From Eremomyces bilateralis CBS 781.70 (taxonomy: Eukaryota): a stretch of DNA of 64,000 bases. This document shows positions 2 through 57,215 of the stretch, piece after piece (position 1 is the first letter of the stretch; each line of letters begins with the position of its first letter). The translations under genes were made by a program, and so were the position numbers. The DNA is taken from the NCBI GenBank assembly GCA_010015585.1, contig ML975157.1, one strand, 5' to 3'. A model generated the notes under the pieces. The model had not been told where the DNA came from. It did no database searches and was given only the letters and a program-made list of their open reading frames with translations.

Positions 2-1171
2 CGAACCGTTATTGCATCCAAGCAGTCCGGAAACGAAGACCTGCTCGCCGATTTGGTTGCGGAGGCCGTACTTGCCGTCCTGCCCAAGGATCCCATAAAT
101 TTCAACGTTGACAACGTCCGTGTTGTGAAGATCATGGGAGGGAGTCTCGAACAAAGCAGGGTCGTCAAAGGCATGGTATTCGGTCGTGAACCCGAGGGCA
201 ATGTCAAGAAGGCCAAGAAGGCCAAAGTCGGAGTCTACACTTGTCCTGTTGACATCAGCCAGACCGAGACAAAGGGGACCGTGTTGCTGCACAACTCAAA
301 AGAACTCTTGGATTTCACCAAGGGCGAGGAGACGCAGGTTGAAGCCATTGTCAAGGAGCTCTACGATTCCGGTATTCGCGTCGTTATTGCCGGCTCTACG
401 GTCGGCGAACTTGCGATGCACTACCTGAACCGCTTCGGCATTTTGATCATCAAAATCCTGTCCAAGTTCGAGCTCCGGCGCCTCTGCCGGGTGGTTGGAG
501 CGACCCCGTTGGCCCGTCTTGGGGCCCCCATGCCTGATGAGATGGGGAGCATCGACATTGTCGAAACCCTCGAGATTGGTGGCGATCGGGTGACGGTCTT
601 CCGCCAAGAAAACGACCTGACACGAACCGCTACCCTGATCCTTCGTGGTGCGACCCAAAACCATCTCGACGACGTCGAACGCGCGGTCGATGATGGTGTC
701 AATGTGGTGAAGGCTATCACGAAAGATCCTCGCTTGGTGCCTGGCGCGGGAGCTACAGAAATGCAGCTTGCTGAGAGAATAGGAGCCATTGGCGAGAAAA
801 CTCCGGGACTGGCTCAGTATGCGATCAAAAAGTATGCTGAAGCATTCGAGGTCATTCCACGGACGCTTGCGGAAAGTGCGGGCTTGGATGCTACGGAGGT
901 CCTCAGTCGGTTGTACTCTGCCCACGCCTCCAAGGCCGAGGAGGACGACGAAGACTGGACCGTCGGTGTCGATATCGAGAACGAAGATGGAACGGGAACG
1001 CTTGATGCCGCCGATGAGGGCATCTTGGATTTGCTTGTGGCGAAGAGTTGGGCCATCAAGCTTGCGACCGAGGCCGCGCGGACTGTCTTGAGCGTCGACC
1101 AGATCATCGTCGCCAGACAGGCTGGTGGACCTAAGCCGCCGGGACCCAACGCGAATTGGGATGAGGACTAG
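2..1171 (+). CDS. CCT8: T-complex protein 1 subunit theta (CCT/TRiC chaperonin), 5'-partial
   Basis: Frame is open from the window edge. It contains FNVDNVRVVKIMGGSL, ISQTETKGTVLL, RGATQNHLDDVERAVDDGVN and the CCT8-type C-terminus IIVARQAGGPKPPGPNANWDED. Confidence 0.95.
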   Translation, partial: RTVIASKQSGNEDLLADLVAEAVLAVLPKDPINFNVDNVRVVKIMGGSLEQSRVVKGMVFGREPEGNVKKAKKAKVGVYTCPVDISQTETKGTVLLHNSKELLDFTKGEETQVEAIVKELYDSGIRVVIAGSTVGELAMHYLNRFGILIIKILSKFELRRLCRVVGATPLARLGAPMPDEMGSIDIVETLEIGGDRVTVFRQENDLTRTATLILRGATQNHLDDVERAVDDGVNVVKAITKDPRLVPGAGATEMQLAERIGAIGEKTPGLAQYAIKKYAEAFEVIPRTLAESAGLDATEVLSRLYSAHASKAEEDDEDWTVGVDIENEDGTGTLDAADEGILDLLVAKSWAIKLATEAARTVLSVDQIIVARQAGGPKPPGPNANWDED

Positions 1172-9728: not shown

Positions 9729-11842
9729 GGTGTGGTGGTTACCATATTCCCAGTGTATCATATAATCGTATCGACCTCGGCGGTTCATCATTCGGGTTCC
9801 TAATGGCAAGGCTGTGTGATCGTGTCCAACCTCCAACGTCCACGTTCGAGCAAGCCGACGATCGGGAATCCGTTAACTGAAACGCTTCTTAACTGCACAG
9901 ATCTCCTGGCCAGGAAAATGACGTTTTAGCTTAATGACATGTGATCCCGACCAAGTCCTGTGGCGCAATTGAAATGACCTGAAGGCCTGGATCAAAGCCT
10001 GGATCAAGATCTGTCACCATCGAAGGCTTTCATCAATGATGTATTCTTGAGGAATCCTCTTATCCCGGATATAGATCCCTGATATGACATCCTCTCGGCA
10101 TACCACGGCTCCCTCAGTCTCCATCACCAATCACCATCGGATTAGGGCTTGAGCCTCCACAGACCCTTTCCCAGCATCACCCAGGCTATCCGAGTGGACA
10201 AGGAAAGGGTTGGGCTCCAGCGACGGATGATTGGACGGATAGCCGGCGTCAGATGCAAGAGGCTGCCCCAACTGCAGGGCTAACGCGTGGCAGACGCGAG
10301 ATCGACTTGGTCATGTCATAACCTCACAATAAGCGAAAGCCGAACCTTGAGTCCTTGTCGGCTAGGTTTTTCCCGGATTGAGCATCGTTTAACTTTCCTT
10401 TTTTCTTTCCTTTTGGATTTGGATTTGGGTGTGACTTGTCAGCTCGTCGTGCCCGATGCCGTTCCCACAACCCGTCCGCCCGTCCGCTGATGGTCAAATG
10501 GCTTGGAACGGTAGGCCAGCTGAATGGCTGAAGCAATGGTTGATGGAGCGATGCCCTGGTAGCCTATCCCGGCCAGGTTGACGACCGAGGATGACTGACC
10601 GGTGCCAACTCACGAGCTCGTCGGCATCTTGTCTGAGGACTACGAGAGCAATCGGAGAGGAGACCCTGCGGTGGAACGGTCGAAAGCCATCGACCATCTC
10701 GCGAGGAGGGGTGGGATCAGACAAGGAGCACTGGATGCGGTGGAACGGGGGTTTCGTACTTTGCCTTGCTTTGCGGTTGTGTATAGGTCGGCTGGATACA
10801 TGGTCCATGGACATCACGATGCCAAGTCGAGGGAGTTTGGTACTTTGCCATGATATACCGTAGGGGATTCGATGGCTGTATCTGAATCTCCACGGGTGTT
10901 CGTTTATTCTCAAGAGCAGCCGAAATCGTAGCTGAGCGATCGCTCCAAACTTTCAGCGTCTTGGCGCGAGCTTCGGAGTAGATGCTATGGTATCCAAACG
11001 CTCAGCCGTGTCAACCCAACCACAGTTCGTCAGTTCTCTACGTGTGTTGCAACTTGAGGTAAGCTCTTGGTCCAGGTTCAGCAGGTTGGCATAAAACAGG
11101 CTAGTAGTCAAGGGGTCCACAGTACGCGCAAAACCGCACAAAACTTGATCGGGGATAACTGGAACGGAAGTCTCAAGAGTCACGATCACTAAGGCAAGGG
11201 AACCCGATACACCCGACTGCCAGCCATTAGCCAGCCACTCGCCTTGCTCCACAAACCACAGACTAGGCTCCCTGTAGGTCTGCACGCATCACCGATCTAC
11301 CTCACTAAGCGCACACAGACAACAGACATGAGACAACTGTAGACGAAGGTGACAGATACGCTCTAATAGTTAGGGAGAGGAGGGAACTAGGAACACTAGG
11401 ATTCTGGGCGACGCTACCGAAGGCCTGCCCACAGCCCAACCGGCGAGTGTGTTCCCGGTGGTCGACCAGGACTTAAGCTCCCATAGTTTTGCAGGTTGGT
11501 TGGTACGTACAGTGCCTAGTAAGGACCAATTCTGTGCGTTCTGTCCGTTTCCCTCTTCCACCTTTTCCAGCCTTTCCCACTCTTCCTCCCACACAAGGCC
11601 ACAACCCATCCGATCCATCGTCAAATCCCTCTGCTCTTTTAAATCCTCCGTCTTTCCCTTCCCTCTTCATCGCTTTCCGGTTCCCACTCTCGCGCACTTG
11701 CTCTCTCACATCGCATTCCGTCTTGACTTTGTAGCGGGTGTTGCTTGCTTTCTGGATTTCCCCTCGGGCTTTCCTACATCATACCTACCTGCTTCCGCTC
11801 GGTGCTCCGAATCTACTACTTGCCTTCGTCATCAGGGTTAAG

Positions 11843-13005
11843 GTACGTGACATCCCACTTTCTTTGATGCTTTCCCCATGTGCCTGGCCCAGCGCGCACC
11901 ACGCCCGACTTCAATATTCCCATTCATTCCGATGCGCCATGCCGTCCAGCCGAAGACAGACAACACGGCCGTCGACCCGATACACCACCGTAACCGATCA
12001 TGACTTGACGCCATGCCATCGTGCTCTCTTGTTGGTCGTCCTAGTACTTCCGCTTGAGACGCGTGTGCGCGTGGAGCCATGTGGGAGCAGAGGCCGAGCA
12101 GAGAGAGCTCTCACATTGATTTTCGCGCTTCGGCGCAACTCTCGGCGCAGAGTCCAAAATCACCACCAAAATCCATCACCAAAACATCATGTCTCCGCAT
12201 CCGCACCGCGCCGCTGGGCCTTGCAGCAGAACCACAACCGCGCAACGGTGCGCTCAGCGAGCATCTGGTTCCACGATCCCCCAGGACCCTACCCAACTCC
12301 CATCAACCTCCATGTGAAATCCACCATTACCCTGAACATGTGATTTGCGACATTGTTGTTGTTGTTGTTATCCGTGTGTTCTCGTGAATTTACCCCGCTG
12401 ACCTGTGGCTTGTTTTCGGAAAATTTTAGGTTGAACGAGTGCTACTGGTACTTCACATCCACAAACTCTCGCTCTTCAAACAAACTCCCGCTCATCACCG
12501 ATTCTGAAACGCAGATCCTTCTCTCTCCATCTTTCGCTCTCACTCTCACGAAGTCTACGACCGTGTGCAATCCCGGAGTTCCGTCATCGGCAATTTTCCC
12601 TTCACTTCCTGGATCGAATCGGTCTTGAAACCAGCGAATATTTCTTCCTTGCAGAACTCCCTCGACGGTGTCTTTCTTGCGCGCCTGCCCTTCGGTCCTT
12701 TCACTGGAGTCTGTCGTGCAAAGAGCCATTGCGAACCAGCGATTTTCGGTCCTACTACTGCATCGAATTCACTTTCTCAAGGAGGAATCCTCGGCCACGT
12801 GCGCTTGTTATCATCGTAGCCTATCTACGTCGGTGCCTGTCGGTTTAAAAGTGAGTGCCCCCCAATCCATCACCCTTTGTTCCATTCACCTCCACATCCC
12901 CAACTGAATATTTTACTTCCGTTCGACATTCTTCCCCGGTTCCTGATTTCCAATATTTTCTCTTTGTGCGCCTCTACTAACTGCATCTTCCTCTCCGCAT
13001 CACAG
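11843..13005 (+). other. two predicted 5'-UTR introns (11843-12429 and 12851-13005) of the NAM8-like gene
   Basis: Canonical donors AAG|GTACGT and AA|GTGAGT. Acceptors GCTGAC...TTTTAG and ACTAAC...CACAG. I found no ATG in the predicted exonic leader segments. Confidence 0.6.
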
Positions 13006-18479: not shown

Positions 18480-20751
18480 ATGTCCACGTTCAACGGAATC
18501 GTCGAAGGTTGGTATTTATCCTTAACATGATGGTGTTGAAATGAACTATGTTGCTCACTCAGAACAGAGTTCCCATATATCCGAATTGACAACTTCCGGA
18601 AATGGCCTGACGCTTCACCTCCTCTCGCATGTTTCTTAAGCCATGTGCATTCAGACCATCTCCTTGGCTTGGAGAGTTTGAAAGCCCCCTTCATTTACTG
18701 CTCGCCGGCAACCCGAGAGGTAACATCCCTCATTTCCATTCCTAGCACCGACCCCCTTGGATTCCATACCAATGCGGTGCGCATTGGTTAACATGGTCTA
18801 GATACTTCTTCGGCTCGAGAAATATCCTCATCGGCTGAACTTTGCAAAGGGGATACTCGAGCAGCGGTTACAGAGCTATGGTCATTTGAAGAAGCTCTTG
18901 AAGCCGATCCCGCTGGACACGTCGTGCGTGCTCCAACTGACCCCCCAAATCTGGATTCGGGTAACCCTCTTCGATGCCAATCATTGCATCGGTGCCGTCG
19001 GTTTTCTGATCGAAGGACTGGGCCAGGATGCCGGGAAGACAATTCTATACTCGGGAGATGTACGCGCGGAGCGGTGGTGGGTCGACTCACTTGCGCGAAA
19101 GCCGTACATGATTCCTTATATATCGCCGTCCTTTGGTCGACCGACGAACGATCGTCATAGTGACCGGAAAATTATGGATGATGCTGCTGACCCAGAAAAC
19201 GGGGCAGCCGTATATCGACCGAATATACTATCAACACTGTATCTGGACACGACGTTTGCGACCACGAGTTTGCCATTCTATCGAGAGTTTCCATCTAAAG
19301 CTTCCGGGATATCTGAATTGCTCCGAAAATGTGCAGAGTTCCCTCCGAAAACCATCTTCTATCTACGAGCATGGACATTTGGTTATGAGGATGTATTCCA
19401 GGCTCTTTCAACCGCGCTCAACTCAAGGATTCACTTGGACAAATATCGCTACAATCTATACACGTCTGTTTCCAAGGCTTCCATCGCCACTAACGAAGCA
19501 CCCTGTTTAGCAGGATATCGACTCGGTAATCATGAGGTGGAGGGGTGTCTAACAAGGACGACGGATGGAGTACGAATCCATGCCTGCGAGATTGGTATGG
19601 ATAGCTGCGCTATTCGCAAGAAACTAGACAGCGGGGAAGTGGTGGGGATTGTGCCGATTATCTCTCGGATAGATGAAGGGTCCGAGATTCTGGAAGTGGG
19701 TGCAGGCGGCGGGATAGGGGACCTGGATCAGGAGGCAGAAGGAAACTTGGAAGTTGAGTTGGATGCCGGATCTTTGGACAAGCTCAGACAACTCCTGTCA
19801 GAGAAGCTTAAGAATGAAAGCAAGAGGCTCAAGGTGTTCGCACTCCTTGAGCAGTCGTTGGAGAAGCTTCCTGATGGAAGAGCGAAGCTCGACTTGGCCC
19901 GCATCTTCCAAGAATCGACAACACAAATCGAGCTAGATAGACTGGTGCTGGACGGTATGCCTCTCAAGCATCTTGTTGAGATCATCCCACGATCGGTCGA
20001 AGCGGGGCTTGAAGGCGTTACGAAGGTTGGGGATGCGATAAAGAAAGGTCAAAATATTTCAACAGGAGGCAATGGGGAACAGTCACGGAAGCGAAGGACG
20101 ATCAGTTTCCCATACTCTCGACACAGCTCCCTTTCGGAGTTGCAGTATTTCGTCTCTGCGTTCCGGCCCGAAGAAGTGTACCCATGCACGGTGGAACTGG
20201 CGGCCTGGACGGAAGATGTCTGCATCGATGCCCTCTTCGGCCACCTGTGCGATGACGACGGCGCCGAGTTCCGAGCCGACGCTGAAATGAGGGCGCGGAT
20301 CAAGGAAAAGGAGGAGTATCGGATTGATAAGAGCCGTAAGAGACAGCGCCTGCGGGAGACATCACAAGAACGGCACCAAAGTTCGAGCCCGGTCCTCGAG
20401 AACGAACGTGAGGGCCAGGGAATCATACAGGCCAGCAGGGGAGATCGGAACCCCGAGAATGCGGGCGTCGCAGAGAGATCGGGGTGTCAATGGAGAAGCG
20501 AGATTTCAGTGGCTGTTGCCAAGGGCGAGTTCATCCCGATCTCCGATGACGAGGAGCAGGAGTCTAGCGGACGCACCATAACGCGTCAGCAAAAAGAACC
20601 GACACCACCGCAGCTCCGAACCACACGTCAATGGGCATATGAGGCGGCTTTAGGCAGGGATGGACTTGCGTGGGAGGATATGGGCGAGCTGGCATGCACG
20701 AGGAAGCGGAAGCCAGACGAATCACAGTTGGATAGTGAGGAGGAGCTGTGA
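18480..20751 (+). CDS. Artemis/SNM1-family metallo-beta-lactamase DNA repair nuclease
   Basis: Spliced N-terminus MSTFNGIVE|EFPYIRIDNFR...ACFLSHVHSDHLLGL (HxHxDH), followed by DANHCIGAVGFLIEG, ILYSGDVRAE, LYLDTTF, WTFGYED and FPYSRHSSLSEL (beta-CASP). Two 5' introns. Confidence 0.92.
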
Positions 20752-21009
20752 TTCTACTTCGCATTTTAGGACATGGCCGGATAGCGGCGTGTCTTATCGT
20801 CGTTTCTTCATTACCATCATCGCTGATGCGCGTGGTCATAAAACGCTGCCGGTTGGGGTCCGGTGCTCGCGTTCTTCATGGCGGCATGGAACGGTCATGA
20901 AGTTGCCTGTAGACGGGAGGATGGCGATCTCTCGCGACTTTTACCACGACCTACTAGATATCCGGATAGCGAAGGTGTCGAGATCGATATGCAAGCTTCC
21001 AGCCTGCAA

Positions 21010-21996
21010 TCATCTGCCCCTTGCCCGCATTTTTCTCCCCCCTCTTGCATTGAACCCCCCTCTCGCCGTCTCCGTCTCCCTCGCATCGACTTCCATCCCC
21101 TCGTCCACGTCATCCAACTCCATCCCCTCCCCCGCCTTCCGCGCCTTCGCCTTCGTCTTCCCAAACCGACGCGTTTCCACTTCCCGATCCAATGCCGCCA
21201 TCTTCTCACTCACCGCCACCTTCCGTGCCATTTCCGCCTCCTGCCTCCGCGCCGCCGCGACCTTGACCGCCCGAATCTCCAATTCCAGCTTCGTGGTTAC
21301 CGATTGCGTGCGCTCGCGCCACGCGGTGAGTTCGCTCATGACTTCGATGGTGTCTTGTGGGGTGATCGTTGAGGGCGTCGCCGTGTCGTTGGACACGTCC
21401 ATCGCCTCCGTGCCGGGAGGTGCACCGCCCAAGCTCCCCGGTCGCAGATCGCGGCAGCAGCTGGCGGAACTGACTATCACGCGCTGGGAAGCCGGGTCGA
21501 GCTTCGCGTCGAGGAGATCTTCGTATATTGCGGCAATGACGAGGTCTTCGAGGTCTCGGATTGAGGAGAGGGAGAGGGAGTGAAGGAGAGCGGGGTAGGT
21601 GAGAAAGGAATGTCGGTGGGATGATGAGAGGAGGGTCAATAGTTGGAGCTTGCGTGTCTGCTGGTCGGAGAGGGAGGGGAGGTTGAGGGTAGTAGCTTTC
21701 TCTGAAACACGCATTAGCCATGTTTCCCCGTTCCATGGACAATTACCAAATGCTCATGTACCTTGATACTCCGCTAAAGTTCCCCATGCAAACAGCTCCA
21801 GCAGGCGTAGATGACCTTCATACTGCGTCCCTTGGAGACCCTGTATTGACTGGCAGTGGAGCAGTTCGGCAAACACATAGGTGTTCAGGGCGGATGTGGC
21901 TTGGGTTATGATATCTGCCGCAGCTCGAGGAGCTGTCACGGATTTGGCGAGGGCCAGGTAGGAAGCGAGGGCGTTCACAGCTCGAGATTGATCCAT
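21010..21996 (-). CDS. CSN7: COP9 signalosome subunit 7 (PCI domain)
   Basis: PRAAADIITQATSALNTYVFAELL and LRLLELFAWGTLAEY, an intron at ~21761-21702, then RKLQLLTLL...IRDLEDLVIAAIYEDLLDAKLDP...RDLRPG. Confidence 0.9.
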
Positions 21997-22747
21997 GGTG
22001 AGGAAAATCGGTGGATGGATAGGGGAGAAAGGTTAGCTGTAGTGGAAATGAAAGAAGAGGTGATAGAGGATCTCTGGTCTTTTGTGAATGTGGGGAGAAC
22101 GGAGGTTGCACGGAGGAGCTGGGGAAGCCGCCACCCTGACTCCTGCCCTGACTACGTTGGTGCCTGAACCTTCTCACTTCCACAGCTTCATCCTTTCCTA
22201 CTTTTTATATCCTCTCGTCAATGCATCCCCTAGGACTGAGAGAGCATGCTGAACTAATACCGAATTAGGTAAGCATACTAGGGGAGAAACAGCTACTAAG
22301 CAATGCTCATCTCTCGTACTTCCATATCAAAGTAGCAAACAGCTATTCTCCTTGGCACGGCCTGTCCTCGTAGCCTAGCTGCAGCATGAGCATGACCGGA
22401 TTCACATTGAACCTGAAAGCTCTTCTCATTGGGCAAATATAATTATGTCTGGATTGCATGTGGACTGTCATTTGTATCCGTTTGAAGGCGTATTCCCATG
22501 AGCTTAAGGCACTTCACCTTGGAAGATCGGCGAAACGTGACAGTTCACTATAGGGGTGTAGAAAGCCGTTCTGTTCTAGAAGCTTCGTGCTTCACTTTTG
22601 CTGTCACTTCCTTCAGTATTCTTTAGTATTTGTCATTATGCTGTACTATTCATTCTTTTTCCTTCGACTGGCTCGCTGTACTTCAATCCATCAACCATCC
22701 CTGGTCTTTATAACAGATCTATACACCTATCACTTCACTCGGCACAG

Positions 22748-25700
22748 ATGAAGCTGTGGCTCGGTTCTATCTCACCGGACATCCATAATGAGGACCTCCA
22801 GAAGGCAATCAACGGCAGTCTGAGACCCTTTGGCATCGACTGCAGGAAGCTTTCCAGATTCTCGAATGGGACGTCCGCCACATTCTGTGTTTACGATGAC
22901 AACAGAGGCAACGAATTCCTAAGAACCTGGACGGCCGCCACTATCAATCGTCCACGGAGAAATGCGGTATTAGACCTTCGGACCGACACAAGAAAGTTCC
23001 GGGTCTTCTTGAATCGGGCCAAAGTCTCGGACGATGACACGACGCCGCTGGAAATACGGTGTGGAGAATTCGAGTCTACGACGGGAAGACATGAAAATCA
23101 ACCCACGAAAAACCGCGAGTTCCCTCTCACAGCCCTCGCGTGTGGTTACCTGGAGTTTGGCGACGCCGATCGAATGACTTTCGAAGACCATTATGCTTCC
23201 AATCGTACAGGATCTGTTGCATTCGGGAGGTCCTCCCTAAGACTGGAGCTGAATCAGGATGTCCGTGGGTCGGTGTATCGCATCGAGATGTCCTACCAAA
23301 GTGTGGATTGTGTGATACTCAACCCGGATCGTGCAGATCCGTCGGTTATTGTATCCCTGAAATGCGCCCCTCAGATACATTTTGTAACCCCTGATTTTAG
23401 TCTCGGCATGAGTGCTCCCGTTGACCGGGCGGCTCTGGAGGCGACAATGAGTTTCCTATCGATCGAGCCTAAAATGCGAAAACCACGAGCACCCCGTCCC
23501 TCACGCATGACAAACATTGATAACCGACATGCTTCCGTAGCCGGAATGTGCATGGTATATCGCATCTCCCTTTGATCCGCACAAGACAGGCTCACAATCC
23601 AGGAGATCTTAGAGAGGAATGTTGGTGTGCCAGACTGTTACAGTGTAAAACTTGTACATATTTCTCCTCGTTCTTCCTTGGACAAACTGCTTGCGATGAT
23701 CGAGCGCCGTCTTGAGAAAGCAGTGGAGTCCAATCCCCTTCCAGTCACCGTTCGCTTCCAGATCCAAAAGCTTGCAATGAACGGAACCCTCCACCCTGAG
23801 GTTGTTTTGAAACTCGTCGCAGCTATGCCTAAGCTGGTGAACCAGTTCGGTGCCGATGCCGTGGCAGACGCACTGCATCACATCTATCGAACCTGGCCGC
23901 TGCCGAGACCCAATAGCACAGAGCGTGTGACGAGAGAAAAAACAACAAACATGGTGATCGAACGCATGGAAGAGAAAGCTAAAGAAACCACTAGCACTCG
24001 AAGTCGAACGGTATCCCGAGCAAAGAACGAATTCATGATTCACCGCGCTAGAGTGACGCCCAGTGGCATATACCTCGAAGGGCCATTTGTGGAGCCGTCC
24101 AATCGAGTGTTGCGAAAGTATGCTGAGTCGACAAACCATTTCCTACGGGTCGTCTTCAGTGATGAAGACGGAGGGCGCATACAGGTCGACCCAGACTACG
24201 ATGATAGGTCTGATATCCCCGGGAAGTTCCTCTCGGTTATGACTAAGGGGGTTAAGATCTGGGGCGGAAGCTTGTATGAATTCCTTGGGTTCTCCCATTC
24301 ATCCCTCAGGGCTGCTTCGTGCTGGTTCAGTGCACCATTCATCCATGATCGAGGATTGATCCATACACCACACATCATTGCCCAGCTAGGCGACTTCTCC
24401 AAACTCCGATCGCCTGCGAAATGCGCAAGTCGAATTGGACAGGCATTTTCAGACACCACCAAAGCTCTCACACTCCCTAAGTCAATGTACTCTCGCGCCC
24501 TTGACGTAAAGCGGAATGGGTACTGCTTTAGTGACGGGTGCGGTACCATATCTCCGTCTTTGCTTTCCAAGGTCTGGAAAACGTACGGTCTGAGGCAGCC
24601 CGTCAAACCCACGATTCTTCAAATTCGGTTCAACGGTATGTCTGCCCCCAAGTTGTCGAGTACACTCCACTAATGCCGTCGCAAGGGGCGAAGGGTGTCG
24701 TCAGTCTCGACTCATCGAACCCCCAAGAGACGCTGACTCTTCGGCCTTCAATGTGGAAATTCGATGCACCTCACGATTGGGATATCGAAATCTGCGAAGG
24801 AAATTTCAGGCCCGGCCCGGCCTTTCTGAACCATCAGACCATCAAAATTCTGGAAGATCTGGGTGTTCCCACTGCTTCTTTCCTGAAGCTCCAGTCCGAC
24901 GCGATGGCCGAGCTCCAGGCTGTGGCTTGCACTGCCTGGAGAGCATCCGACCTTTGGCTGAAACGGTCATTCTCGGAGGCCGGTGGCGTCCGGACTCTTC
25001 TCGAGACCTGCCAAGTCATGGGCTGTAAAATCGGCGAGGACCCAACGCTCCGAAAGTTGATCGAGTTTGCGATCCTTTTCGAGGTCCGCGAAATGAAGTA
25101 TCGTGGACGTATTCCGGTCAAAGAAGGGTCTCACGTTTTTGGCATTATGGATGAGTACGGGGTCCTGGAGGAAGGCCAGGTTTATGTGGTGTTCGAGAGT
25201 CCCAATACCGGCTGAGAAGTAATTAGCGGTGTCCCAGTCGTTGTGACTCGCGCACCGACACTGTTTCCGGGAGACATCCAAGTTGTCGACGCTATTGATG
25301 TGCCAGAGGATTGCCCACTTCGAGAGCTCTCTAACTGTATCGTCTTCCCACGGAAAGGCGCGCGGGATATTCCTAGCATGCTCTCTGGCGGAGACCTTGA
25401 TGGCGACGAGTTCACCGTGTTCTGGGACTCTCACTTGATACCACCCACGCTCGAACAACCGGCGGACTTCCCTAGAGCCATTGCTCACGATCTTCAACAG
25501 GTCACGAATCAGGATATGGCCGAATTCTTTGTCCGGTTTATGACCAGTGATAAACTCGGCAGCATCGCGACGAAGCATAAGGTTCTCTGCGATCAGAAAC
25601 CTGAAGGAAGCCGCCATGGATACTGTGAGATGCTCGCCAAACTACATTCCGATGCAGTTGACTATAGCAAGAGTGGAGTTCCTGTAAGTTCTATTTTTGG

Positions 25701-26659
25701 GTATCCTTTGCGGTGGAGCGGTCCTGCGTCATTTTAGTCTGATGAATATATGCTGTGGGGATAATCCCTTAGATAGGCCACAGTTCACGTTCATTGTCAA
25801 CCGCATACTGCTGAAACTGACATTTGGCAGGTTGAGATGCGGAAAATCCCTCGAGGACTCAACAAACTCGCATCGTTCCGACCCGATTTCATGCAACCAG
25901 CTCCCCCGATACGACTGCTAAGCGATGTCACCCTGCTAGAGGCGATCGAGATAGGGGTGTAGGAACAGCCGAGCGATTTGGTTGAATTCGAAACACAACG
26001 GTTTCGATACTACCCAAGCGATCGAGTTCTAGGCCAACTCTTTCGGCCTATTAATGAGAAGGCGTCCATACAACGTGTCGAGAATGCCTTTACTCCAGCC
26101 AAGCAGGCCACGCTCAAAGAAAAGCTATTTGAATTGATGAGAAAAGAGACGAAATACTTGATGTTTAGCCGCCATGTTGACTTGGCTCGAGAAATCCGAG
26201 AATAGTAGGTCCCGGCATCCCCTTGCCAGCCTTCGTAGCAACAGTGACTGACCAAATACTCCTTCCAGCTACGAAGAAATGGTGGTTGACCTCATGCTCA
26301 CCTTCTCCGTGTCGCCATCCACCCCCTTAAACAAATTCGAAATCGTTGCGGGCAAGATTCTCGGAAGGTCGGATGGGCAGCAAGGCCGGGTCGTCCGAGA
26401 AACGACCATCCAACTTCGGCAGGCGTACGATTCAGAGTGCTGGTGGATTCGCGACTGGATCATCAGCGGTGAACAGGGCGTGGAACATCCGGAGTACACC
26501 TTGGAGTCTCTCCGTCGTGCGCTCGCGTGCTTGTGGGCCAGTACGAAAGAAAAAGGGACTCTGTGGCAAGGCGTGGGAAAGCTGGAATCTTTCTGGATTC
26601 TCTCTGCTTCCGTTGCATTGCAACTACTTGAGAAGTACAAGACGGGTGTCTTTAGGTAA
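22748..26659 (+). pseudogene. RNA-dependent RNA polymerase (RNAi; most like the RRP-3-type clade) with three in-frame stop codons
   Basis: Motifs SNRVLRKY, FLRVVFSDEDG, FLGFSHSSLR, RIGQAFS, FSDGCGTIS, QIRFNGAKG, TRAPTLFPGD, LSGGDLDGD, HSDAVDYSKSG and RPDFM. Introns 24636-24685, 25684-25830 and 26205-26268. In-frame stops TGA 23573-75, TGA 25213-15 and TAG 25960-62. Confidence 0.85.
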
Positions 26660-28749
26660 GATTGCGCTGAGGCAAACATATGGTTTTACCTTGCATTCTG
26701 TATCGAAATTTTCCCAGAGGCATGGAAGAAGTTGAGCAGACGACTGCCGATGACGAGAAATGTGGGTGGGTTCAGTACTTCCCTTTCGCAATTTCCGTAG
26801 GGCTGTTGTGTATATGGCTAGTTAATTGTACCCGCACTTGTGTAGATTCTGTTGTAACTCGTATAAGATCAAGTGCCTTGCCCGGGTTCAACTGATGCAA
26901 AGTTTAGCGATGATGTTGATTGTCACCAAGCGGATAACGGGTTACTCCAGTCCAAACTTCGGTTTGAATTGCTTCTGATCAGTCGACCTTTAGCTACAGG
27001 CTCACTTTCGGCGCTGCATCATATCGCCTGCCTGCAACAGTACAGAGTCCCGGAACTGGCACTACGCGGAAGAGACTCCTGTACTATAGCCGGTATATAG
27101 GGGTACATTGAACTTCAATCTACAAGTCCGTAGCTGACCGCGTAGTCCTGCAACTTCTCGCCTTGGTTGACCCGGGGAGACATAGATCAAAGGTGTGCCT
27201 ATGTCCGATCACGTCTCACGAATCGATCCTTCAAGATTTCAGTAACGACGACAAGTTTTCATGATTGATATCCCAAGGACAATGTGTGAAACCAGCAGCA
27301 GTGGTCTTGCTGCAATTTCTATATGACTGAATTCCTGTACTCGATTTCAATGCACTTATGTTTATTAAATCAGGAGTTCTTAGTGTAGTCATGCAATCGT
27401 GGTGCATCTAGCACATCCGTTCACTGTGCCTATACAACCTGTCAATAGGGGTCAATTAGCCATTCCTCAATATCTGTCGGCTGGGGCAGCCCCGGGTGCA
27501 GAGTTCGTTTCTCGGATGGACTCTTTTTTCTCTCGATTTTTATATTTTCTACAAGAATTTTAGTGCAGATGCACCACTTTCTTGTTCTCATGGGTGGAGT
27601 TGCCCGTGGTATTTCAACCTATACAAACCCCATTTCCAGTACATGATCATATTTCCTACCTTGATCTGGGAATGGGCTCTCGGAAAAGGAAATACATAAT
27701 CGGTTATTGGGAGAACCATAGCATCTGCATATGCAACGAAATCTTGCCGAACGATTTCTTCGGCAAAAGACATAGTTGGTGTACCGTTTGCAACAGGGTC
27801 TAGAAGGTCTCGAATAAGTGGTCATCGTATTGCAAGTTGAATTCCATTTCATTGAACATCAAGGTTCCATTCACCTCGTTTTCGTGATGACTGCTTGGCA
27901 AGCTCCCGCGTAACGCGACGGATTCTTGCGCCCCGAGTATTGACGCTGTGCCTCCATACCTCCACCGCTTGTCAGTGACGTTCCAATGCGTCGTGTATAT
28001 CTCGGTACCTCCCTAGCATGACTCCTCCGATGGTGACACACACGACGATACAGTATCACCGCATGCCAAACACCAAGGACTAGGCAGCGAACCGGGAGGA
28101 GGGAACCCCAGGTCTTGGACCATTGCGTAGCACATCAGCGCACAGCATAAATCGGCCGGACCAACACTAAGTATTGTACTGTGATACAAGACAATCCGCG
28201 ACGTTACTCCCCAGAGAAAGCCACAAATGTACGAGCTCGATCTTGGGAAAGACGTTATCTAGCTTAAACCATGCCAGTACCGCTCCTTCCGGTCTCAAAT
28301 TCTGTGCTGACAATTATCGTGACTTGAGTAGGACCTAGCCAAGCAAAGAAGAGGTTGACTTATGGAACAGGGTCCAATGTCTTGACTGAGGTACGGATTA
28401 TGAGACTCCCGCGCGGCATTTTAAGCTGAGAAATGTAATCTAGGAACAAACATATTGAAACGGAACAGTTGGTTTGGCAGAATGAAAGAACCCCCTGAAG
28501 ATCAACTTCTTTGCAAATAGATGGAATCTAGACCACTACAGGTACGAGACTCACCGCGCTATTCGAAGGGCCGGGTGCTAGAATGCACTAAAAGAGACAA
28601 TGGCATTATGAATCTATCAAATTCATCCAGTCCGTTTGAAACCGGGAACAGAAGTGAGCGATTGAAGTGATCCAAAAGCGTCACACAATATCCAACCACC
28701 TTTGCCGTTTAGGCGTGCTGGCATCAGCTGTCGCCCGTCAGAGTTAAGC

Positions 28750-35223: not shown

Positions 35224-38200
35224 ATGGTGTTCTGTACCTACTGCGGACAGTCCTTTACTCGGGACGAACATCTCGAACGGCACATTCTCACTCGTAGGTT
35301 TCAGACTGCCCCATCGTCCAACTAGCTAGTCGAACTAGCTCGCATCCTTAAGTCAGGGTTAACTAAGGGTGAACAGATACGAACGTGAAGCCTTTCAAAT
35401 GCCTCACTTGCCATATGTCGTTCGCTAGACGGTAAGCGGCCATATATTCCTGATAGCCTAGCTCTTTGCTTTGGTTTCCACCTTGATGATTTCATCCCCC
35501 GATCGAAAGCCTAGGGGATCATATGAGCTTGGTTGACATGTGCGAGCAGGGACTTGCTTCAAAGGCATTATACCGTTCATGGACGGGATGCCAACAATCA
35601 AGAAGGCCTCCCAAACACGGCCATGATGCCAAGGACCGCTGGTCGGACACCAATCGCTTGCTCGAACTGTGCAAAAACTAAGACCAAGTGTGACAAGAAG
35701 TTCCCCTGCAGTCGGTGTGCTGGAAGGAATCTCAAGTGCACTCTAAGACCGACTCGCCGAGTTTCTCGTCAGAATATACCCCGAGTCCCGTCGGGCGAAG
35801 AAACCTCGCAGATGCTCCAGAAGCCTCAACCACCCGGAGATGGGTCAAGTACTGCCCAGAACGGATCAAAAGGGTCCCCAAATTACTCTTCTGGAAGCTC
35901 TCCGCCATCTCAACAGACAGCCATCCCCCAACCTCTGATTATGCAGGCAATTCAGACACACCAATCACATTCCCGTCCGGAGAATACGTTGCCTTCACCA
36001 AAGGAAGGGAAAGGGACGATTGACGGTGCGCCAACATACTTCGACACCGATTCACCTGAGGCGACTTCAGCCATGCTTGCTGGTGTACTCTCCCCATTGC
36101 CGACACCCACGTCCGGCTTTATTCAACAGACTCCGCTCTCAGGATACGAAGACTTTATCGGCACAACTCGCCCTGATTCCGGGGATGGTTCATCCCCTCC
36201 ATTCCTATTGGACTGGGCATCTGGAATGCATATCCCGGGTGGATTCGACCCAATGACGGGAAACATGATGTTGACGGGAGATATCGGTCTGGATATGCAC
36301 GGAATGACCGGCACCAGTGCAGCTGATGGGATGTATACCATGATCCCCGAGTTCACCCAAGCACTCCAATCAGTGCAAACGCCGATTACCACCCCTCCGA
36401 TACTTGAGGGGTCAATTTCGGAACAGGACACCGTCGGCGGTGGCAGCTCGGGTCCCGGTTCGGCTTTTTATGCATCTTCAACGCCTCACACTCATTCACG
36501 CTCACAATCTCACGCCACCTCGCGTCAAACCTCCATCTCACTTCCGGGCCCGATGATTCCTTCACTTTCGAACACTGGTACCGATGCCAGTTCCAACTCA
36601 ACCCCTGGATCCAACTCTTCCTCATCCTCTGAACTACCTGCTATCATCGCGGCTCAAGATTCTTGGACCTGTTTTCGGTGTCTCCCCACCACCCCACACC
36701 ATAATTGTCCGAAAACAGCTAGACTGAATCTGGAAAAGCTAGAGCAAAGCCTTAAGAATCCAGAAATTTGGAGCCAATGGGGCCCTAGTTGGGATGAGTC
36801 TGAGGTGTATGGTGGTTGCTCGGACTATCTTCAGGCCGTTGGCTTGCATGAATGCACTCGGGACAAGCTTCTCGCGATCACCCAAAGCTTCCTGCACAAG
36901 GCACTCGAAATTCACAAAGACCCGACAGGGACTCCCAATCTATCCAACATCAACCTCAACGGCGCGGCATCTCCGGCTCCCGGCACTTCTAACTTCGTTC
37001 TTCTACCTCCGGGTCGAATACTTGAACACCTGCTCCGCAGCTACTCTAACAGTGTCGAACGTTTCTTTCCCTTGACTCCTCGCTCCACTCTCGACTGCAA
37101 TGCATTGTTATCCCGTCAGGAAACCCCAGATAAGGCTTCTGCATTGCTTTTACTCCTCATGATCTCCGCCGGCGCTTCGACATTGCCTAACCCAGAAGCT
37201 CGGTTTCTTACTGGTGGACTCGTCGAAGCTTGTCGCATTAGTCTTTTCGACCTCATTGAGAAGAACATCATCATGGCAGGAGACTTAACAGTGCTCCACT
37301 CGGCGTTGCTTTTCACCAGCCAAGCCGCATGGTCCGGCGACAAATGGCAGATGGATATTTCTATGGGTCAACGTGGTATGTATACCGCCATGTTGAGGCA
37401 CAGCGGCTATTTGGACGCTGTTCCGGTTAGCCCATCCATTCAAGGAATGGATGTCGAGGCGATTTGGAAGGGTTGGCTTGAGCAAGAGGCCAGAAGCAGG
37501 TGAGTGTTCGCCCCCATATTTTCCGGCGTTTCGCAAGTGGCATTGTTTTTCTTCTGAGGCTGACTGTCGTATCGATATCCAGACTTATGTATTCTTGGGC
37601 GATGATTGACCAAGATCTGTCACTGTTCCACGATACTGCTCCTCTTTTCAATGTTACCGAGTTCGCGGCCGCCATGCCAGATGCAGAGCATCTCTGGCGC
37701 GCCAACTCCGCGGAGGAGTGGTCGACGTTGTTTGAGCAAGTTCACTCCTTTGGTGGCGGGTACTCTTCCGTGGGGTCTGGCGTACGCCCCTCAAGCCTTC
37801 GAGACGTATTTCGCCAGTTCTTAGACGACGAGCTACAGCAAGGCTGCGAGCTTACGCCTCTACACTTCCGTCTCCTTCTGCATCCCTTGCAAGGGCTCGT
37901 GAGCCAATACTGTCAACTGCTCTCTTACTTCTCCTCGGAAAGTTTAAGTGGCCAACGGCGGCACAGTCGTCCAATGTCTGCAGCCTCGACTCACGGACGC
38001 CTAGAAGAGGTCCAATCGCTCTTGCAGAGATGGTACGACTTAGCCAATGGATACGTCAAATCGCAGCCACTATGCCCAGTGATGCAAGCCAACCTAGTAT
38101 TGTTCCATCTTATCTTTCTCAACGCGATAACCAACTTCCACGAGATTGAGAAATTAGCCCGCCGAGAGGCCTTCGACGGAACATATGCCCAGCTTGTTTG

Positions 38201-44389: not shown

Positions 44390-46721
44390 TCACGCCGTAT
44401 CAATGGGGCCGCCAGGGTTGGTATCTATGTAAGCCTGCCACTTCGCGCAAGTCTGGGAAATCATTTCCGGAATCGGCTTCAGATCTCCAGGTTTGACCAT
44501 GACATTCATGGACAGACCTCCTGAGAGATGCCAAGCGATGTGGCAGTGGAATGGCCAAACACCCGGGTTATCAGTAGTGACTTGATAGACGGCATATCCG
44601 TTCGCCTCAATAATGTGAACGTCGCGGCGCTGGGGGTTATGTGCGTTCACAATGCTACCGTTCCACTTGCCCTTGCCGCTGTCAAGAACAAAGAAGTCGT
44701 AGCCATGAAGGTGCCATGGATGGACCGCAGGAGCATTGTTCTCAATGATGAAGCGGACGGAAGTGTTGGTGCCATAGTTGTAGACATTCAACTGAGGATC
44801 GTCAGGGTAAGAAGTGATGCCTTGGGAAGCGAGGTCGAGGATTGGTTTGTTGAAATTCGTGCGAAAAGTCTGATTGTTGATGCGCCATTCAAATTGACCC
44901 ATCTGGTTTACGGCCAGGGACAGGACTAGCTCCTGGGTGAAGCTAGGTTCTCCAGGCACGATGGGGAACATTGGAACAGACGACATCAGGGGGTCGTTAT
45001 TGCAGGTCGTGGTGTCAATACGAGAGGCTGTGCTGGCAGGCACCTGCTCGGTATCTGCACGGTTGTAGTACACGACCGCGAGCGCCTCCGGATTTCGGGA
45101 TTCCCCGCAAGGTTTGCCCCCAACAAGAGTGGCGCGGACCCAATACAAGTCTCGATTGCCCTCGGTAGCCTTAACAATGACATCGGTACGTTGGCCAACC
45201 TGAAGAAAGATGAATGACAGTTCCAATTGGAATTAGGGGCATGAAACTTACGCCAAGTGTGACAACATCAGTATCGTATGGCTTGATCGGAACAAAGTCT
45301 TCGGCAATCACGGTCATTGTGTGTTGATCGATGGAAAATCGCTGCACGCCATCCGATCCGACATTCAGGAGGCGAAGCCGGTATGATTGGCCCTTGTCGA
45401 AGTGGAATTTTGAGAGCCCGGCATTTGGGGTACATTTTTGGGTTGAATTCAAAGGAATATTGTTGCAGTCGAAGTTGTTCCTGCCATTGATAAGATTATT
45501 GTCACTCTTCGGTGGAATTCTAGATAACTGACACGCTTGTTAGCCAACGTTTCAATTTAAAGGGTGGTTTAGTAGATTACATCCGTTCCGACCATATCTG
45601 AGACGATCTTGCTGTGGTGCTGTCAGACTCGTGCTGCGGAATCTGTGCGTATAACGCACTTAACTCACAAATAAGGTGCATGGTACCAATCGGAGAGCAT
45701 GATAGGGCCGACATCCTCGTCATATTTGTGTTGCGTTGGACCATAGATGATGATAGGACCGACCACACCAGCATTGTACTGAGCAGAAAAGTGAGCATGC
45801 CACCATGTAGTTCCGTATTCCTCGGCTTGGAAGCGATATGTGAGTGAAGCGCCAGGCGCAATCGGACATTGCTGAAAAGGAAGCGTGGTCAGGATCGCGG
45901 GCTACTCTTGCGGAAAAGGTGGAGGACGTACAGAAGTTCCGGAAACCCCATCAAACCACGGCGTTTCTGTCTGGAGGAATCCATGCCTGACGGAAAATTT
46001 AGTCCAATTACACAGCAAGGCTGGGTACGATCTCTTACCAGTGGATGGACGTGCCTTCCTTTGGTGACTCAATCTGGTTATGCACGGTAACTTCAATCCA
46101 ATCACCCCAGTTTGCCTCTATTTGGGGCCCAGGGAACTGTTCATTGACTAAAATCGCATCCCTCTCGACACCATCCGGAGCAATAACCGCACGGGCAACC
46201 TTAGGTTGTTAATAGTGTTTTCAGCCGCTTAACTCCGGACTGGCATACAGTGAAATCATATTTCCTGGTGATTCCTGTATTGGGTACGTCGGGCAGATGG
46301 GCGGGGTTGCTGTTTTCGCAGGTCCTGCATGGAAGGGTTATCAAATGCTCGCCATCGGAGGAGAGCCGCATCAACTGCGTACCGGGGGCCCCACGGAGAC
46401 CCATCGGGGATGGGCTAGTGGCCCTATTAGCGTCTGTATCTGAATCGAAATATAGGAGATCCTCCGGAGGCACCAACGACAAATGTCGCATAGACTCCGC
46501 CCGGTAGATCCAGATTGAGTGAACATACATTGTTAGTAAGTGCCGACGGGAATCGTGGTGCATCTAGGTTGCCCCAGAAGGATTTCCCTGCCCATGAAAC
46601 CTTAATGCTCCACTCCTAAGGATGGAATGCATATTGAAGTCGCACCATTTTGTTGGGCAGAAGACACTGTAGCGATCAACCTGCCGCCTGTCTTGATAGT
46701 CTTCCAAACCGATGGGGCCAT
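44390..46721 (-). CDS. laccase / multicopper oxidase (10 exons)
   Basis: Spliced model MAPSVWKT...[14 protein letters not shown]...[18 protein letters not shown]...[15 protein letters not shown]...[12 protein letters not shown]...SIHW|HG...|QCPIAPG...WWHAH...HPWHLHG...[15 protein letters not shown]. All four copper-binding motifs are present. Confidence 0.9.
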
Positions 46722-50600: not shown

Positions 50601-53600
50601 ATGAATACCCTTGTTTTCGGTGACCAAACAGCAGACCAATATCCGCTCCTGCGGAAGGTCACCACCCGGAAGGACAATGCTCTCCTCGCTACTTTCCTCG
50701 AGCGAGCTGCGGTAGCTCTTCGAGAGGAAATCCAGCGGCTTCCACGTAGTCAACGTGAGGAATTTCCCGATTTTCTCACAATGAACCAGCTAGTGGAAGC
50801 ATACTACGAGAAGGGTGTGCGACTTCCTCAGATTGAGAGTTGTTTCGTTACCGTTGCTCAACTTGCGCATTTCATCGGGTAAGTACAACCTAAAATGACC
50901 TAGCTGGGACAACTTCTCACAACAGTTTAGTTATTACGGAGAGAACCCGTCTGAACTGCCTAATGCCTCGAACACCCGAATCCTAGGTCTCTGTACAGGT
51001 CTCCTGGCTGGATCGGCTGTTGCTTGCTCGCGTTCACTCTCCGATCTTTTGCCGCTATCAGTTCAAGTCTTGCGAATTTCCTTCCGCGTTGGCACCCTGG
51101 TTGCGGTTGCGAAATCCGCTTTGACAGACTCCAATGAAAGCTGGTCCACGATCGTGACTGGCACAAGCCACGAAACCGCTCAAAAAGCCTTGGATAAATT
51201 CCATGCCGAGAACAGCATACCAAACTCCAGCCGAGCGTACATATCGGCGATCAGTGTCATGGCCTTGACTATAAGCGGACCGCCTGCGACAACCCAGCGA
51301 ATCTTCAAAGAATCTGAGGCTTTGAACAAAAACCATCGAGTTGGAATCCCTATTTTCGCACCGTATCATGCACCGCACCTCTACAGTGATGCAGAACGAG
51401 CGAATATCCTTGGAACTGACTCCTTTCAGCTCAAGCAGTTCATCCCAAACTGCTTGATCCACTCTGCTGCCACTGGAAAATGTCATTCAGCGGCCAATGC
51501 CCTTGAGCTGGTTCATATTGCGTTGGAAGAGATTCTTCAGAAGCCAGTTCGATGGGACTACCTTCTCGAGGACATGGTTTCTCAAATTACAATGTTCCCT
51601 AAGTCAGAAGCGACCATCCATGCCATTGGCATCACCAATATCGCCAACAGCTTGCTCTCGGGCTTGAAAGCTGGTGGACAAACCCACGTTTCCGTCCGAG
51701 ACCACGCTTCCTGGGTAGAGAACGACAAGCACACCGGGCGCACACAGAACGACAAGATTGCCATTGTCGGCATGTCGGGTCGTTTTCCCAATGCTGCGGA
51801 TCACGAAGCGCTCTGGGATCTTTTGATGAAAGGATTGGATGTTCATCGAGAGATTCCTAAAGATCGATTTGATGCCAAGGCTCACTGCGACCCGTCTGGC
51901 AAAGGGAAGAACAAATCGCATACACCTTACGGCTGTTTTATTGATGAACCTGGTCTTTTTGACCCTCGTTTCTTCAACATGTCTCCCCGCGAGGCAGCGC
52001 AGACAGACCCTATGGGTCGGTTGGCTTTGGTCACCGCCTATGAGGCCCTCGAGATGTCGGGATGTGTTCCTAACCGAACGCCATCGACGAAGCTACACCG
52101 GATTGGCACGTTTTATGGTCAAACAAGTGATGACTGGCGTGAAATTAACGCGGCCGAAAATGTCGACACCTACTTTATCACGGGCGGGGTGCGAGCATTC
52201 GCCACAGGGCGAATCAACTACTATTTCAAGTTCAGCGGTCCGTCATTTTCCATTGACACCGCATGCTCTTCCAGCTTGGCCGCTATTCAACTCGCCTGTA
52301 CTTCGCTCTGGGCTGGGGACTGTGATACTGCATGTGCTGGCGGTCTGAATGTCCTTACCAATCCGGACATTTTCGCCGGCCTTTCCAAGGGTCAGTTCCT
52401 GTCCAAGACAGGGTCCTGCAAAACGTACGACAACGATGCAGATGGCTATTGCCGTGGAGATGGCTGCGGGACCGTCATTCTCAAGCGATACGAGGATGCT
52501 ATCGCCGACAACGACAACATCCTTGGATGCATCCTCGGTGCTTCGACGAACCACTCTGCTGAGGCTATCTCGATCACCCATCCTCACGCTGGTGCGCAGG
52601 AGTTCTTGTATAAGAAGGTCCTTGCCGAAGCTGGCGTTGATCCGCATGACATCTCTTATGTGGAGATGCACGGCACCGGAACTCAAGCTGGTGACGGAAT
52701 TGAGATGACTTCTGTTACCAATTCCTTCGCCCCATGCCACCGCCGGAGACGTCCGGAACAAACTCTGCATCTCGGCGCGATCAAGGCGAACGTTGGCCAT
52801 GCTGAGGCTGCATCGGGGATCAATTCGTTGATCAAGGTTATGCTAATGATGCAAAAGAACGCCATCCCGGCCAATGTGGGAATCAAGGGTGAAATCAACA
52901 AGACCTTCCCCAAAGACCTCTCCGAACGGAATGTCCACATCTCACAATCAAAGGTTGCCTGGCCACGCAAAGGCGCAGAGAAGCGTCGGGCGTTCCTGAA
53001 CAACTTCAGTGCAGCGGGTGGTAACACTGCCATTGTACTCGAAGATGGCCCCCTTCGCGAGGCTCCAAAGGGCGTGGATCCCCGAGGCACACATCTCATC
53101 TCAGTTTCTGCTCGATCTATTGCATCATTGAAGAGGAATCTCAACAATTTGATGAATTGGCTCCGCGAGAACCCTAGTACGACTCTACCTAGCCTTGCTT
53201 ACACCACTACTGCTCGCCGCATTCAGCACAACTACCGCATTGCATTCACCGCGTCCGATATGAGCCAAGTTAGCGAAGGTCTCGGGGGCCAACTCAAAGA
53301 CACGTACAGCCCGATCGCCATGGTACCGACCGAAGTTGCTTTCACCTTCACTGGTCAGGGTTCTCAATATACTGCCCTCGCGAAGAAGCTGTTTGAGGAA
53401 CTCAGTTCCTTCCGTGCGGACATTGAACAACTTGACAAGCTTGCTCGCATTCAGGGTCTGCCCTCTTTCATACCTATACTCGACGGTACGGATGTCGCGA
53501 CACTGTCCCCAGTGGTGGTCCAATTGGGCCTTGCTTGTATACAAGTTGCCCTGGCTCGCATGTGGGCTTCTTGGGGCGTCAAGCCTGTTGCTGTTATTGG

Positions 53601-56600: not shown

Positions 56601-57215
56601 CAGTGGCCCTTACTTTATCGGCGGCTGGTCTGCCGGGGGCGTGGTTGCGTACGAGGTCGCCCTGCAACTGATGGCGGCGGGCGAGAAGGTAGAGCGCCTA
56701 ATACTACTTGATTCGCCTTGTCCAGTCAAACTCGAGCCTCTTCCCGCACGCTTGCATCATTTCTTCGAGAGCATTGGACTGCTGGGAACCGGCAAAGCAG
56801 GTGGCACTCCAGGCTGGCTACTACCGCACTTTGAATCTTGTATCAAGGCACTGTCAGCTTATGAACCGGCGCCGATGCCGAAAGGAATCGCGCCGTCTAC
56901 CCTTGCCATCTGGGCTACTGATGGAGTGTGTGGGAAGCCTGGTGATCCAAGACCACCGCCGGCCGAGGGAGAGGATCCCAAACCGATGAAGTGGTTACTG
57001 GACAATCGAACTGATTTTGGTGACAATGGATGGGCACAACTATTGGGCGATGAGGCCTTAACTTTCCGGGTGATGGGAGGAAACCACTTCACGATGATGC
57101 GAGATGAGCATGTGAGTTTCAGCTTCCGAGAGACCGATCTTGAGCATTTTCTAACAATACATAGGGCAACACCCTTTGCAAGCTAATCAAAGAAGGAATG
57201 GGCCTGACAGACTAA
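50601..57215 (+). CDS. PKS1: non-reducing iterative type I polyketide synthase for DHN melanin (SAT-KS-AT-PT-ACP-ACP-TE)
   Basis: LVFGDQT and GLCTG (SAT), DTACSSS and EMHGTGT (KS), GHSLGEY (AT), GHIINGVPLCPSS (PT), LGVDSL and LGMDSL (two ACPs), FPDGSGSATSY and GWSAGG (TE). Introns 50879-50930 and 57112-57164. Clustered with CMR1 and THR1. Confidence 0.95.

Follow-up and report, generated by a model that had tools for sequence, protein, structure and literature searches.

Does a gene that keeps the whole frame of a cellular RNA-dependent RNA polymerase (RdRP), with three stop codons inside that frame, still make an enzyme through some form of recoding, or is it dead? The question is raised by a locus on the plus strand, positions 22748-26659, of a 64,000-nucleotide stretch of contig ML975157.1 from Eremomyces bilateralis CBS 781.70 (assembly GCA_010015585.1); the whole of this stretch is called the window here. 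The sequence-only reading of the window had described a full-length RdRP gene of RNA interference (RNAi), interrupted by in-frame stops, and had preferred a pseudogene to a recoded gene. That observation is confirmed: a full-length RdRP gene broken by three stops lies at this place. We suggest that it is probably a unitary, still-transcribed and structurally young pseudogene of a cellular RdRP.

The frame that runs from ATG 22748 to TAA 26659, with three introns, three in-frame stops and no frameshift, was reproduced both by a listing of open frames and by an assembled RNA contig from sequencing run X3. Its four exons join to 3651 nt, which is 1216 codons plus TAA, and its ATG is the first in-frame ATG within the open frame 22580-23575. 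All three introns are of the GT..AG kind, with a plausible branch site in each. The only interruptions are TGA 23573, TGA 25213 and TAG 25960, and the stop-to-stop frames between 22400 and 27000 contain no frameshift. The parts of the gene are as follows.

22748-24635, plus strand: exon 1, codons 1-629 and 1 base, encoding an RRM-like region at the N terminus, followed by the PH-like domain and the opening third of the RdRP domain.
23573-23575, plus strand: premature stop 1, TGA at codon 276, between ..VYRISL and SAQD.., in the context cttTGAtcc, where the A is preceded by G.
24636-24685, plus strand: intron 1, 50 nt, GTATGT..AAG, phase 1; its joint is present in the X3 RNA contig.
24686-25683, plus strand: exon 2, encoding the RdRP core (PF05183, 348 bits); the X3 contig is unbroken over 24685-25683.
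25213-25215, plus strand: premature stop 2, TGA at codon 806, between ..PNTG and EVISG.., in the context ggcTGAgaa, with G at -1.
25684-25830, plus strand: intron 2, 147 nt, GTAAGT..CAG, phase 0; its joint is present in the X3 contig.
25831-26204, plus strand: exon 3, over which the X3 contig is unbroken; it aligns with homologues, for example at RYYPSDRVLGQLFRPI.
25960-25962, plus strand: premature stop 3, TAG at codon 1006, between ..EIGV and EQPS.., in the context gtgTAGgaa, where the A is preceded by U and followed by G.
26205-26268, plus strand: intron 3, 64 nt, GTAGGT..CAG, phase 2; its joint is present in the X3 contig.
26269-26659, plus strand: exon 4, ending in TAA 26657-26659, as read from the frame and from the RNA contig.
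26660-26875, plus strand: 3' untranslated stretch, a minimum extent, the X3 contig ending at 26875.

The stops are present in the DNA and in the spliced RNA. Our evidence for this consists of Logan contigs, which are consensus sequences only, from which minority variants are dropped and whose depth is unusable as a level of expression. Contigs of two DNA runs, X1 and X2, span 22400-27000 with 0 letters other than those of the window (word depth 165 and 241). The two runs share a sample, from which the window itself may have been assembled, and hence are not independent of the assembly. Run X3 belongs to another sample and another study, with the developmental stage unstated, and was treated as RNA since its contig is without the three introns. 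This contig (7990 nt, depth 103) covers 22400-24634, 24685-25683, 25831-26204 and 26269-26875, has neither gaps nor letters that differ from the window there, and, because its joints (24634/24685, 25683/25831 and 26204/26269) match exactly the three predicted introns, is cDNA. All three stops are unchanged in this dominant spliced transcript, and neither the DNA contigs nor the RNA contig carries a sense codon at any of the three sites. A 48-nt in-frame intron at 23555-23602, which had been put forward as a means of splicing out stop 1, is not removed, the contig being unbroken over 22400-24634; nor does the contig show extra splicing around any stop between 22400 and 26875, minor isoforms being something that could be dropped from contigs.

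Could the stops nevertheless be errors of sequencing or assembly, or mutations of the culture that was sequenced? Runs X1 and X2 may share their sample with the window, and a fourth run with the same species label, X4, does not cover the locus. However, two DNA assemblies and an RNA assembly, the latter of another sample and study, are identical in every letter across 4.2-4.6 kb. Without hypermutation, of which there is no sign, a single gene would be very unlikely to gain three independent nonsense mutations in culture. We consider an artefact or a culture-specific lesion highly improbable.

A separate observation on the X3 contig is that it extends about 3.8 kb upstream of the region compared above (about 18600-22400), over a PCI-domain gene at 21010-22000 on the minus strand and a DRMBL (SNM1/PSO2-like) gene at 18802-20751. 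Overlapping transcripts may have been merged here, or the assembly may be chimeric.

The three codons are read as stops in this genome. Among 13 long frames checked in the window, eight end in TGA, two in TAG and three in TAA, some of these ends being exon ends and not termini, and the 2095-codon frame of a polyketide synthase (PKS), among others, contains none of the three stop codons. A reassigned code is thus rejected: all three codons end long frames, and long frames elsewhere, such as those of CCT8, the PKS, a multicopper oxidase and a Zn2Cys6 factor, are clean. Selenocysteine at the two TGA codons was rejected by inference, Cys being found at the stop columns in 0 of 27 full-length homologues. 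These 27 are all matches of 1100-1300 residues (P0001-P0006 and 21 others), a set without the distant matches P0007-P0015, without fragments and without the model of the window itself. Selenocysteine machinery is not known from Ascomycota.

Single stops standing between open frames of at least 80 codons on each side occur at 27 places in the window, two of which are RdRP stops 1 and 2. Another, at 21754, is an in-frame TGA of the PCI-domain gene that sits inside an ordinary 60-nt GT..AG intron at 21702-21761 (minus strand) with a length that is a multiple of three; because the TGA lies in the intron, this is not to be counted as another gene with a premature stop. At 11477-12904 (plus strand), four stretches in the same frame (85, 202, 94 and 92 codons long) have one stop (11732, 12341 and 12626) between each and the next, in a low-complexity region that looks non-coding. 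The remaining 21 places are mostly alternative frames of known genes, with four places outside the RdRP gene having been looked at individually, and no premature in-frame stop was found in the other window genes examined.

What would the standard code make of this transcript? The gene is of the Pezizomycotina RdRP type of about 1200 residues, made up of an RRM (N-terminal and degenerate) and then PH-like and RdRP domains. Its promoter, splice sites and overall frame are kept, and it gives a correctly spliced mRNA. Translation of that mRNA would end at codon 276, within the PH-like domain, and any product that read on would end again at codon 806, before the DLDGD loop, and then at codon 1006. 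Given stops at 276, 806 and 1006, a product containing the whole polymerase domain is therefore not to be expected, and it is from this that we infer a loss of function.

The family to which the gene belongs is clear from its domains. A Pfam scan, made exon by exon with X placed at the stop codons, and a comparison of the catalytic motif mark out two elements.

23117-23671, plus strand: PH-like domain, PF25358 PH_fung_RdRP, residues 124-308 (E 2.1e-28, 99.5 bits), cut by stop 1.
25387-25407, plus strand: catalytic motif GGDLDGD (DxDGD), intact and aligned to GGDLDGD of RDR2; stop 2 sits 61 codons upstream of it.

The RdRP profile PF05183 gives 180.2 bits over profile positions 1-196 in exon 1 and 347.6 bits over positions 199-536 in exon 2, and exon 3 is without a match to positions 537-582 at E<=0.01; seven intact homologues that were scanned score 624-646 bits over positions 1-582. 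Among solved structures, an RDR2 chain of the Arabidopsis type (PDB 7eu0, 7roz) matches exon 2 at 1.2e-46 over all 331 residues, whereas the QDE-1 chains (2j7n, 5fsw) match at 2.4e-15 to 3.9e-15 over about 160 residues only. Because the RDR2 match spans exon 2 and the QDE-1 match is short and weaker, the gene is not of the QDE-1 type. The catalytic motif of QDE-1 is DYDGD. The gene is a member of the RdRP family by descent; it is without a continuous frame for the whole domain, and so is no working member.

Full-length homologues (1100-1300 residues) that share this pair of domains are spread throughout Dothideomycetes, Leotiomycetes, Eurotiomycetes, Lecanoromycetes and smaller classes. The gene shares its enzyme family and catalytic motif with Neurospora crassa SAD-1 and RRP-3 and with plant RDR2. 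An N-terminal RRM was detected in two of the seven homologues scanned, P0404 (24.6 bits, above the Pfam cut-off) and P0242 (15.1 bits, below it), and an RRM is reported in Neurospora SAD-1 (PMC4182546), which together hint at an affinity of the gene with SAD-1 as opposed to RRP-3. The literature searched yielded nothing usable on SAD-1/RRP-3 classification, and the label in the ESM Atlas is merely 'RdRP'.

The public gene model of this locus gives a different picture. P0136, entered as 'RdRP-domain-containing protein [Eremomyces bilateralis CBS 781.70]', is a protein of 763 residues that is identical to the window; it starts at an internal Met at 23825 and is drawn with two further introns, as follows.

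25191-25226, plus strand: 'intron' of P0136, 36 nt, GT..AG, which skips stop 2 (between FESPNTG and EVIS); the X3 contig has no joint here.
25959-26268, plus strand: 'intron' of P0136, 310 nt, GT..AG, which skips stop 3 and 81 conserved codons; the X3 contig uses the donor at 26205 instead.

P0136 is an artefact of a gene caller that avoids stops. Inventories of RNAi genes taken from annotation would score a dead polymerase as intact at this locus, as P0136 hides all three stops.

Where did the stops come from? It had been pointed out that each lies one C-to-T transition from CGA, CGA or CAG, and that orthologues might show R, R and Q, or else W, at these columns. The first point is formally true, but it holds for any TGA or TAG, and the homologues back it at stop 2 only. 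There, the 27 sequences carry R in 12, a gap in four, Q in three, H and K in two each, and V, E, G and S in one each. The column of stop 1 is variable (A6, L4, S3, Q3, P2, E2, K2, D2, V1, N1, I1), and that of stop 3 has D in seven, E in six, A, I, P and N in two each, and S, Q, K, L, V and a gap once each, so that Q is found there a single time. Trp occurs at the three columns in 0 of 27 homologues. A change from Arg to stop (CGA to TGA) is therefore plausible for stop 2, alone among the three, as judged from these alignments.

The further proposal, that the stops arose by cytosine deamination or by a process like repeat-induced point mutation (RIP), finds no support. For the RdRP gene the RIP indices are 0.55 (TpA/ApT), 1.14 ((CpA+TpG)/(ApC+GpT)) and -0.59 (composite), similar to those of the rest of the window; the usual thresholds for RIP are >0.89 for the first of these ratios and <1.03 for the second. 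The ratio of observed to expected CpG in the gene is 1.01, and the one paralogous DNA match to the gene is only 36 nt long. Both RIP and methylation-driven decay of CpG were rejected as the source of the stops.

A stop that is fixed in the DNA may still be corrected when the gene is expressed. In such a conditional rescue, adenosine-to-inosine (A-to-I) editing in the sexual stage, turning UAG or UGA into UGG (Trp), or else readthrough, would supply the RdRP in fruiting bodies only. The gene resembles the pseudogenes with premature stop codons (PSC) of Fusarium graminearum and Neurospora in being transcribed and otherwise intact, with in-frame stops in a 1216-codon frame that is kept without frameshift and properly spliced. 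Some PSC pseudogenes have two stops, and those with two editing sites number 6 of 71 in F. graminearum by the count in PMC10776026. Furthermore, if the gene were of the SAD-1 type, which acts in meiosis, a product made in the sexual stage only would be sensible, and the RRM of the two homologues mentioned above is in keeping with this.

The sites themselves fit such editing less well. As described in PMC11156358, A-to-I editing in fungi is specific to the sexual stage and prefers a U before the edited A (at -1, in >70% of sites), a purine (A or G) after it, at +1, and a position in a hairpin loop. The context of stop 3 (gUAGg) agrees with these preferences at both -1 (U) and +1 (G). At stops 1 and 2, by contrast, the codon is UGA and the A is preceded by G, a context that the sequence-only reading had rightly called a poor one for editing. 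The restorative editing of PSC that is described in PMC11156358 and PMC10776026 is of UAG to UGG, and 'UGA' does not appear in the main text of the latter. The three stops of this gene include a single UAG. None of them has a supported hairpin loop: no hairpin places the A to be edited in a loop, and the folding (z-scores +2.55, +0.34 and -0.66) is at no site better than that of shuffled sequences. Nor is Trp the residue of any homologue at these columns. When an A-to-G change at the stops was looked for in RNA, none was found in the X3 contig, a consensus that would not show minority variants; it has A at all three sites. Moreover, editing is documented in Sordariomycetes and in Pyronema, was not found in genome-wide searches in Aspergillus nidulans (cleistothecia) and Botrytis cinerea (apothecia), and is unreported for Dothideomycetes as far as the account in PMC11156358 goes. 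In contrast to the PSC pseudogenes, which have UAG with U at -1 and are edited in perithecia, this gene has UGA with G at -1 as two of its three stops, belongs to a Dothideomycete and is unedited in the RNA consensus.

Readthrough meets difficulties of its own. Known leaky contexts of stop codons include UGA C and UGA CUAG; those of the gene are UGA U, UGA G and UAG G, which are not among them, and three successes in a row would be needed. At its basal level, readthrough of three stops one after another would be negligible. Taking both routes together, we regard conditional rescue as very unlikely, and its most specific form, an RdRP restricted to meiosis or the fruiting body through ascomatal editing or decoding that repairs all three stops, the two UGA with G at -1 included, as highly improbable. 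If it were true, restorative correction of stops would reach beyond Sordariomycetes and Pezizomycetes and beyond UAG, and a polymerase of RNA silencing would be tied to the sexual stage through recoding instead of transcription.

Could the locus have taken on a new role instead? Transcription and accurate splicing persist, and the state of the splice sites and frame is unusually good for a gene that is dead, as might be expected if the 275-residue N-terminal fragment (the RRM-like region and part of the PH-like domain) had a function, or if the transcript served as a regulator or decoy in silencing. However, the last approximately 32 residues of the PH-like domain are lost at stop 1, and the fragment is therefore unlikely to fold as such a domain. 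A new role would also create no need for the 940 codons downstream to stay open, and persisting transcription is equally expected of a young pseudogene. We think it very unlikely that the gene has been put to a new use in either way.

The reading of the gene as a transcribed pseudogene is the one that we favour, in agreement with the preference of the sequence-only reading: the stops are in both DNA and RNA, they are not spliced out, and the consensus shows no A-to-G change. That the loss is recent in evolutionary terms is what we infer from three features: there are no frameshifts, indels are not in excess, and conserved sites are only mildly eroded. The indels that are unique to the gene are two 1-residue insertions and one 1-residue deletion, which is not above what intact homologues have.

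How far has the protein sequence itself decayed? The claim that all motifs are intact holds for the catalytic DLDGD and fails elsewhere. In the HPGD motif His is replaced by Phe (H823F), with H in 26 of the 27 homologues, and six of the 82 columns that are invariant among these homologues are changed (A561S, F750T, S851P, Y891F, R900Q and A984Q), where other sequences have 0-4 such changes and one sequence has six. Of 168 columns with a conservation of 90% or more, the gene keeps 151, the second lowest value of 28, the others ranging from 0.876 to 0.994. It is also second lowest of 28 in a leave-one-out score with hidden Markov models (1174 bits; mean 1379, standard deviation 109), and its terminal branch is the longest, at 1.25 (median 0.66; the next two are 1.20 and 1.11). 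These measures place the gene among the most divergent of its family, although stops aside it has decayed very little.

Several points weigh against our preferred explanation, or against what might be built on it. First, under the models tried, three stops imply about 71-94 neutral substitutions, with a missense change in 4-5% of codons. The ratio of indels to substitutions in fungi and in pseudogenes is about 0.03-0.1; because this ratio applied to 71-94 substitutions would lead one to expect frameshifts, and none is seen, their absence is a mild oddity under purely neutral decay. Second, of the 17 conserved columns at which the gene deviates, six (L>N, F>T, T>Y, H>F, A>C and A>Q) cannot be reached by a single base change, so that much of the erosion is probably older divergence of the lineage; the intact homologues P0266 and P0250 diverge about as much as the gene does. 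We therefore dropped the use of conserved-site erosion as a clock matching the missense load of about 4-5%, and erosion of this kind would lend the decay of the gene weak support. Third, an mRNA with an early stop might be depleted by nonsense-mediated decay, yet it was assembled into a contig.

Finally, no relative close enough for a comparison of non-synonymous and synonymous rates (dN/dS) or for the sharing of stops was found in searches of proteins and metagenomes, which comprised a word-indexed search of 5.8 billion proteins, an exhaustive search of 1.84 billion representatives (2171 matches) and a scan of JGI metagenomes. The best identity to the full-length gene is 33-36%. A 353-residue piece of exon 1 reaches 54% over 174 residues (P0272) and 44% among near-full matches, with its own model excluded; exon 2 reaches 50%, and the four loci found in JGI metagenomes reach 43% at best. 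A fragment of the CCT8 chaperonin gene at 2-1171 (plus strand) of the same window has at most 86% identity to other species, with its top matches spread over several classes, which shows, as far as such identities can, that the lineage is isolated in current databases.

Which known cases does the gene resemble? The closest parallel may be drawn with rdr4 of Cryphonectria parasitica, a transcribed RdRP pseudogene of the RRP-3 clade with premature stops (PMC4182546). Both genes are transcribed and spliced, both have premature stops that make a complete RdRP domain impossible, and in both fungi other RdRP genes remain. They differ in that the transcripts of rdr4 are without DxDGD and are alternatively spliced, whereas here the 1216-codon frame includes DLDGD and a single splice form is seen. 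The RNAi genes of Aspergillus nidulans, cited in PMC4182546 as degenerate or truncated, are similar in that single components of RNA silencing decay piecemeal in Pezizomycotina while others persist; unlike those truncations and degenerate remnants, the present gene is of full length, with point nonsense lesions only.

The fungus does have another polymerase of this kind. A second RdRP is present in contigs of X1, X2 and X3, including an RNA contig of 6236 nt, and matches positions 25374-25409 of the window with three differences. It shares the stretch coding for GGDLDGD, and its flanks, where they were read as loose ends, are RdRP-like and in frame (..GDRDLG and DYFVSWDENL). Because the flanks in the 6236-nt RNA contig read as RdRP, at least one other RdRP of the DLDGD type is transcribed. 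The loss of an RNA-silencing arm, which the sequence-only reading had raised, is therefore no more than a possibility.

Some neighbours of the gene in the window deserve mention. The 2095-codon frame referred to above (50899-57186, plus strand) is that of a non-reducing PKS, with SAT, KS, AT, PS-DH, two ACP and TE. Within 16 kb of it lie a multicopper oxidase (44390-45232, minus strand) and a Zn2Cys6 transcription factor (35527-37503, plus strand), and the three may form a pigment-type cluster. Two adjacent frames at 59335-62197 (minus strand) have DDT, WHIM1 and WSD motifs and look like an intron-split subunit of a chromatin-remodelling complex, similar to Itc1/ACF1.

Searched by species name, the literature on Eremomyces bilateralis (13 papers) held nothing on RNA silencing in its titles and the opening parts of its abstracts. 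As a probable pseudogene, the locus would be one more case of the piecemeal decay of RNA silencing in filamentous ascomycetes, in a phylogenetically isolated lineage, and one that is caught at an early stage, with transcription, splicing and frame still in place. It also offers three adenosines at which restorative editing could be checked for beyond the classes where such editing is known.

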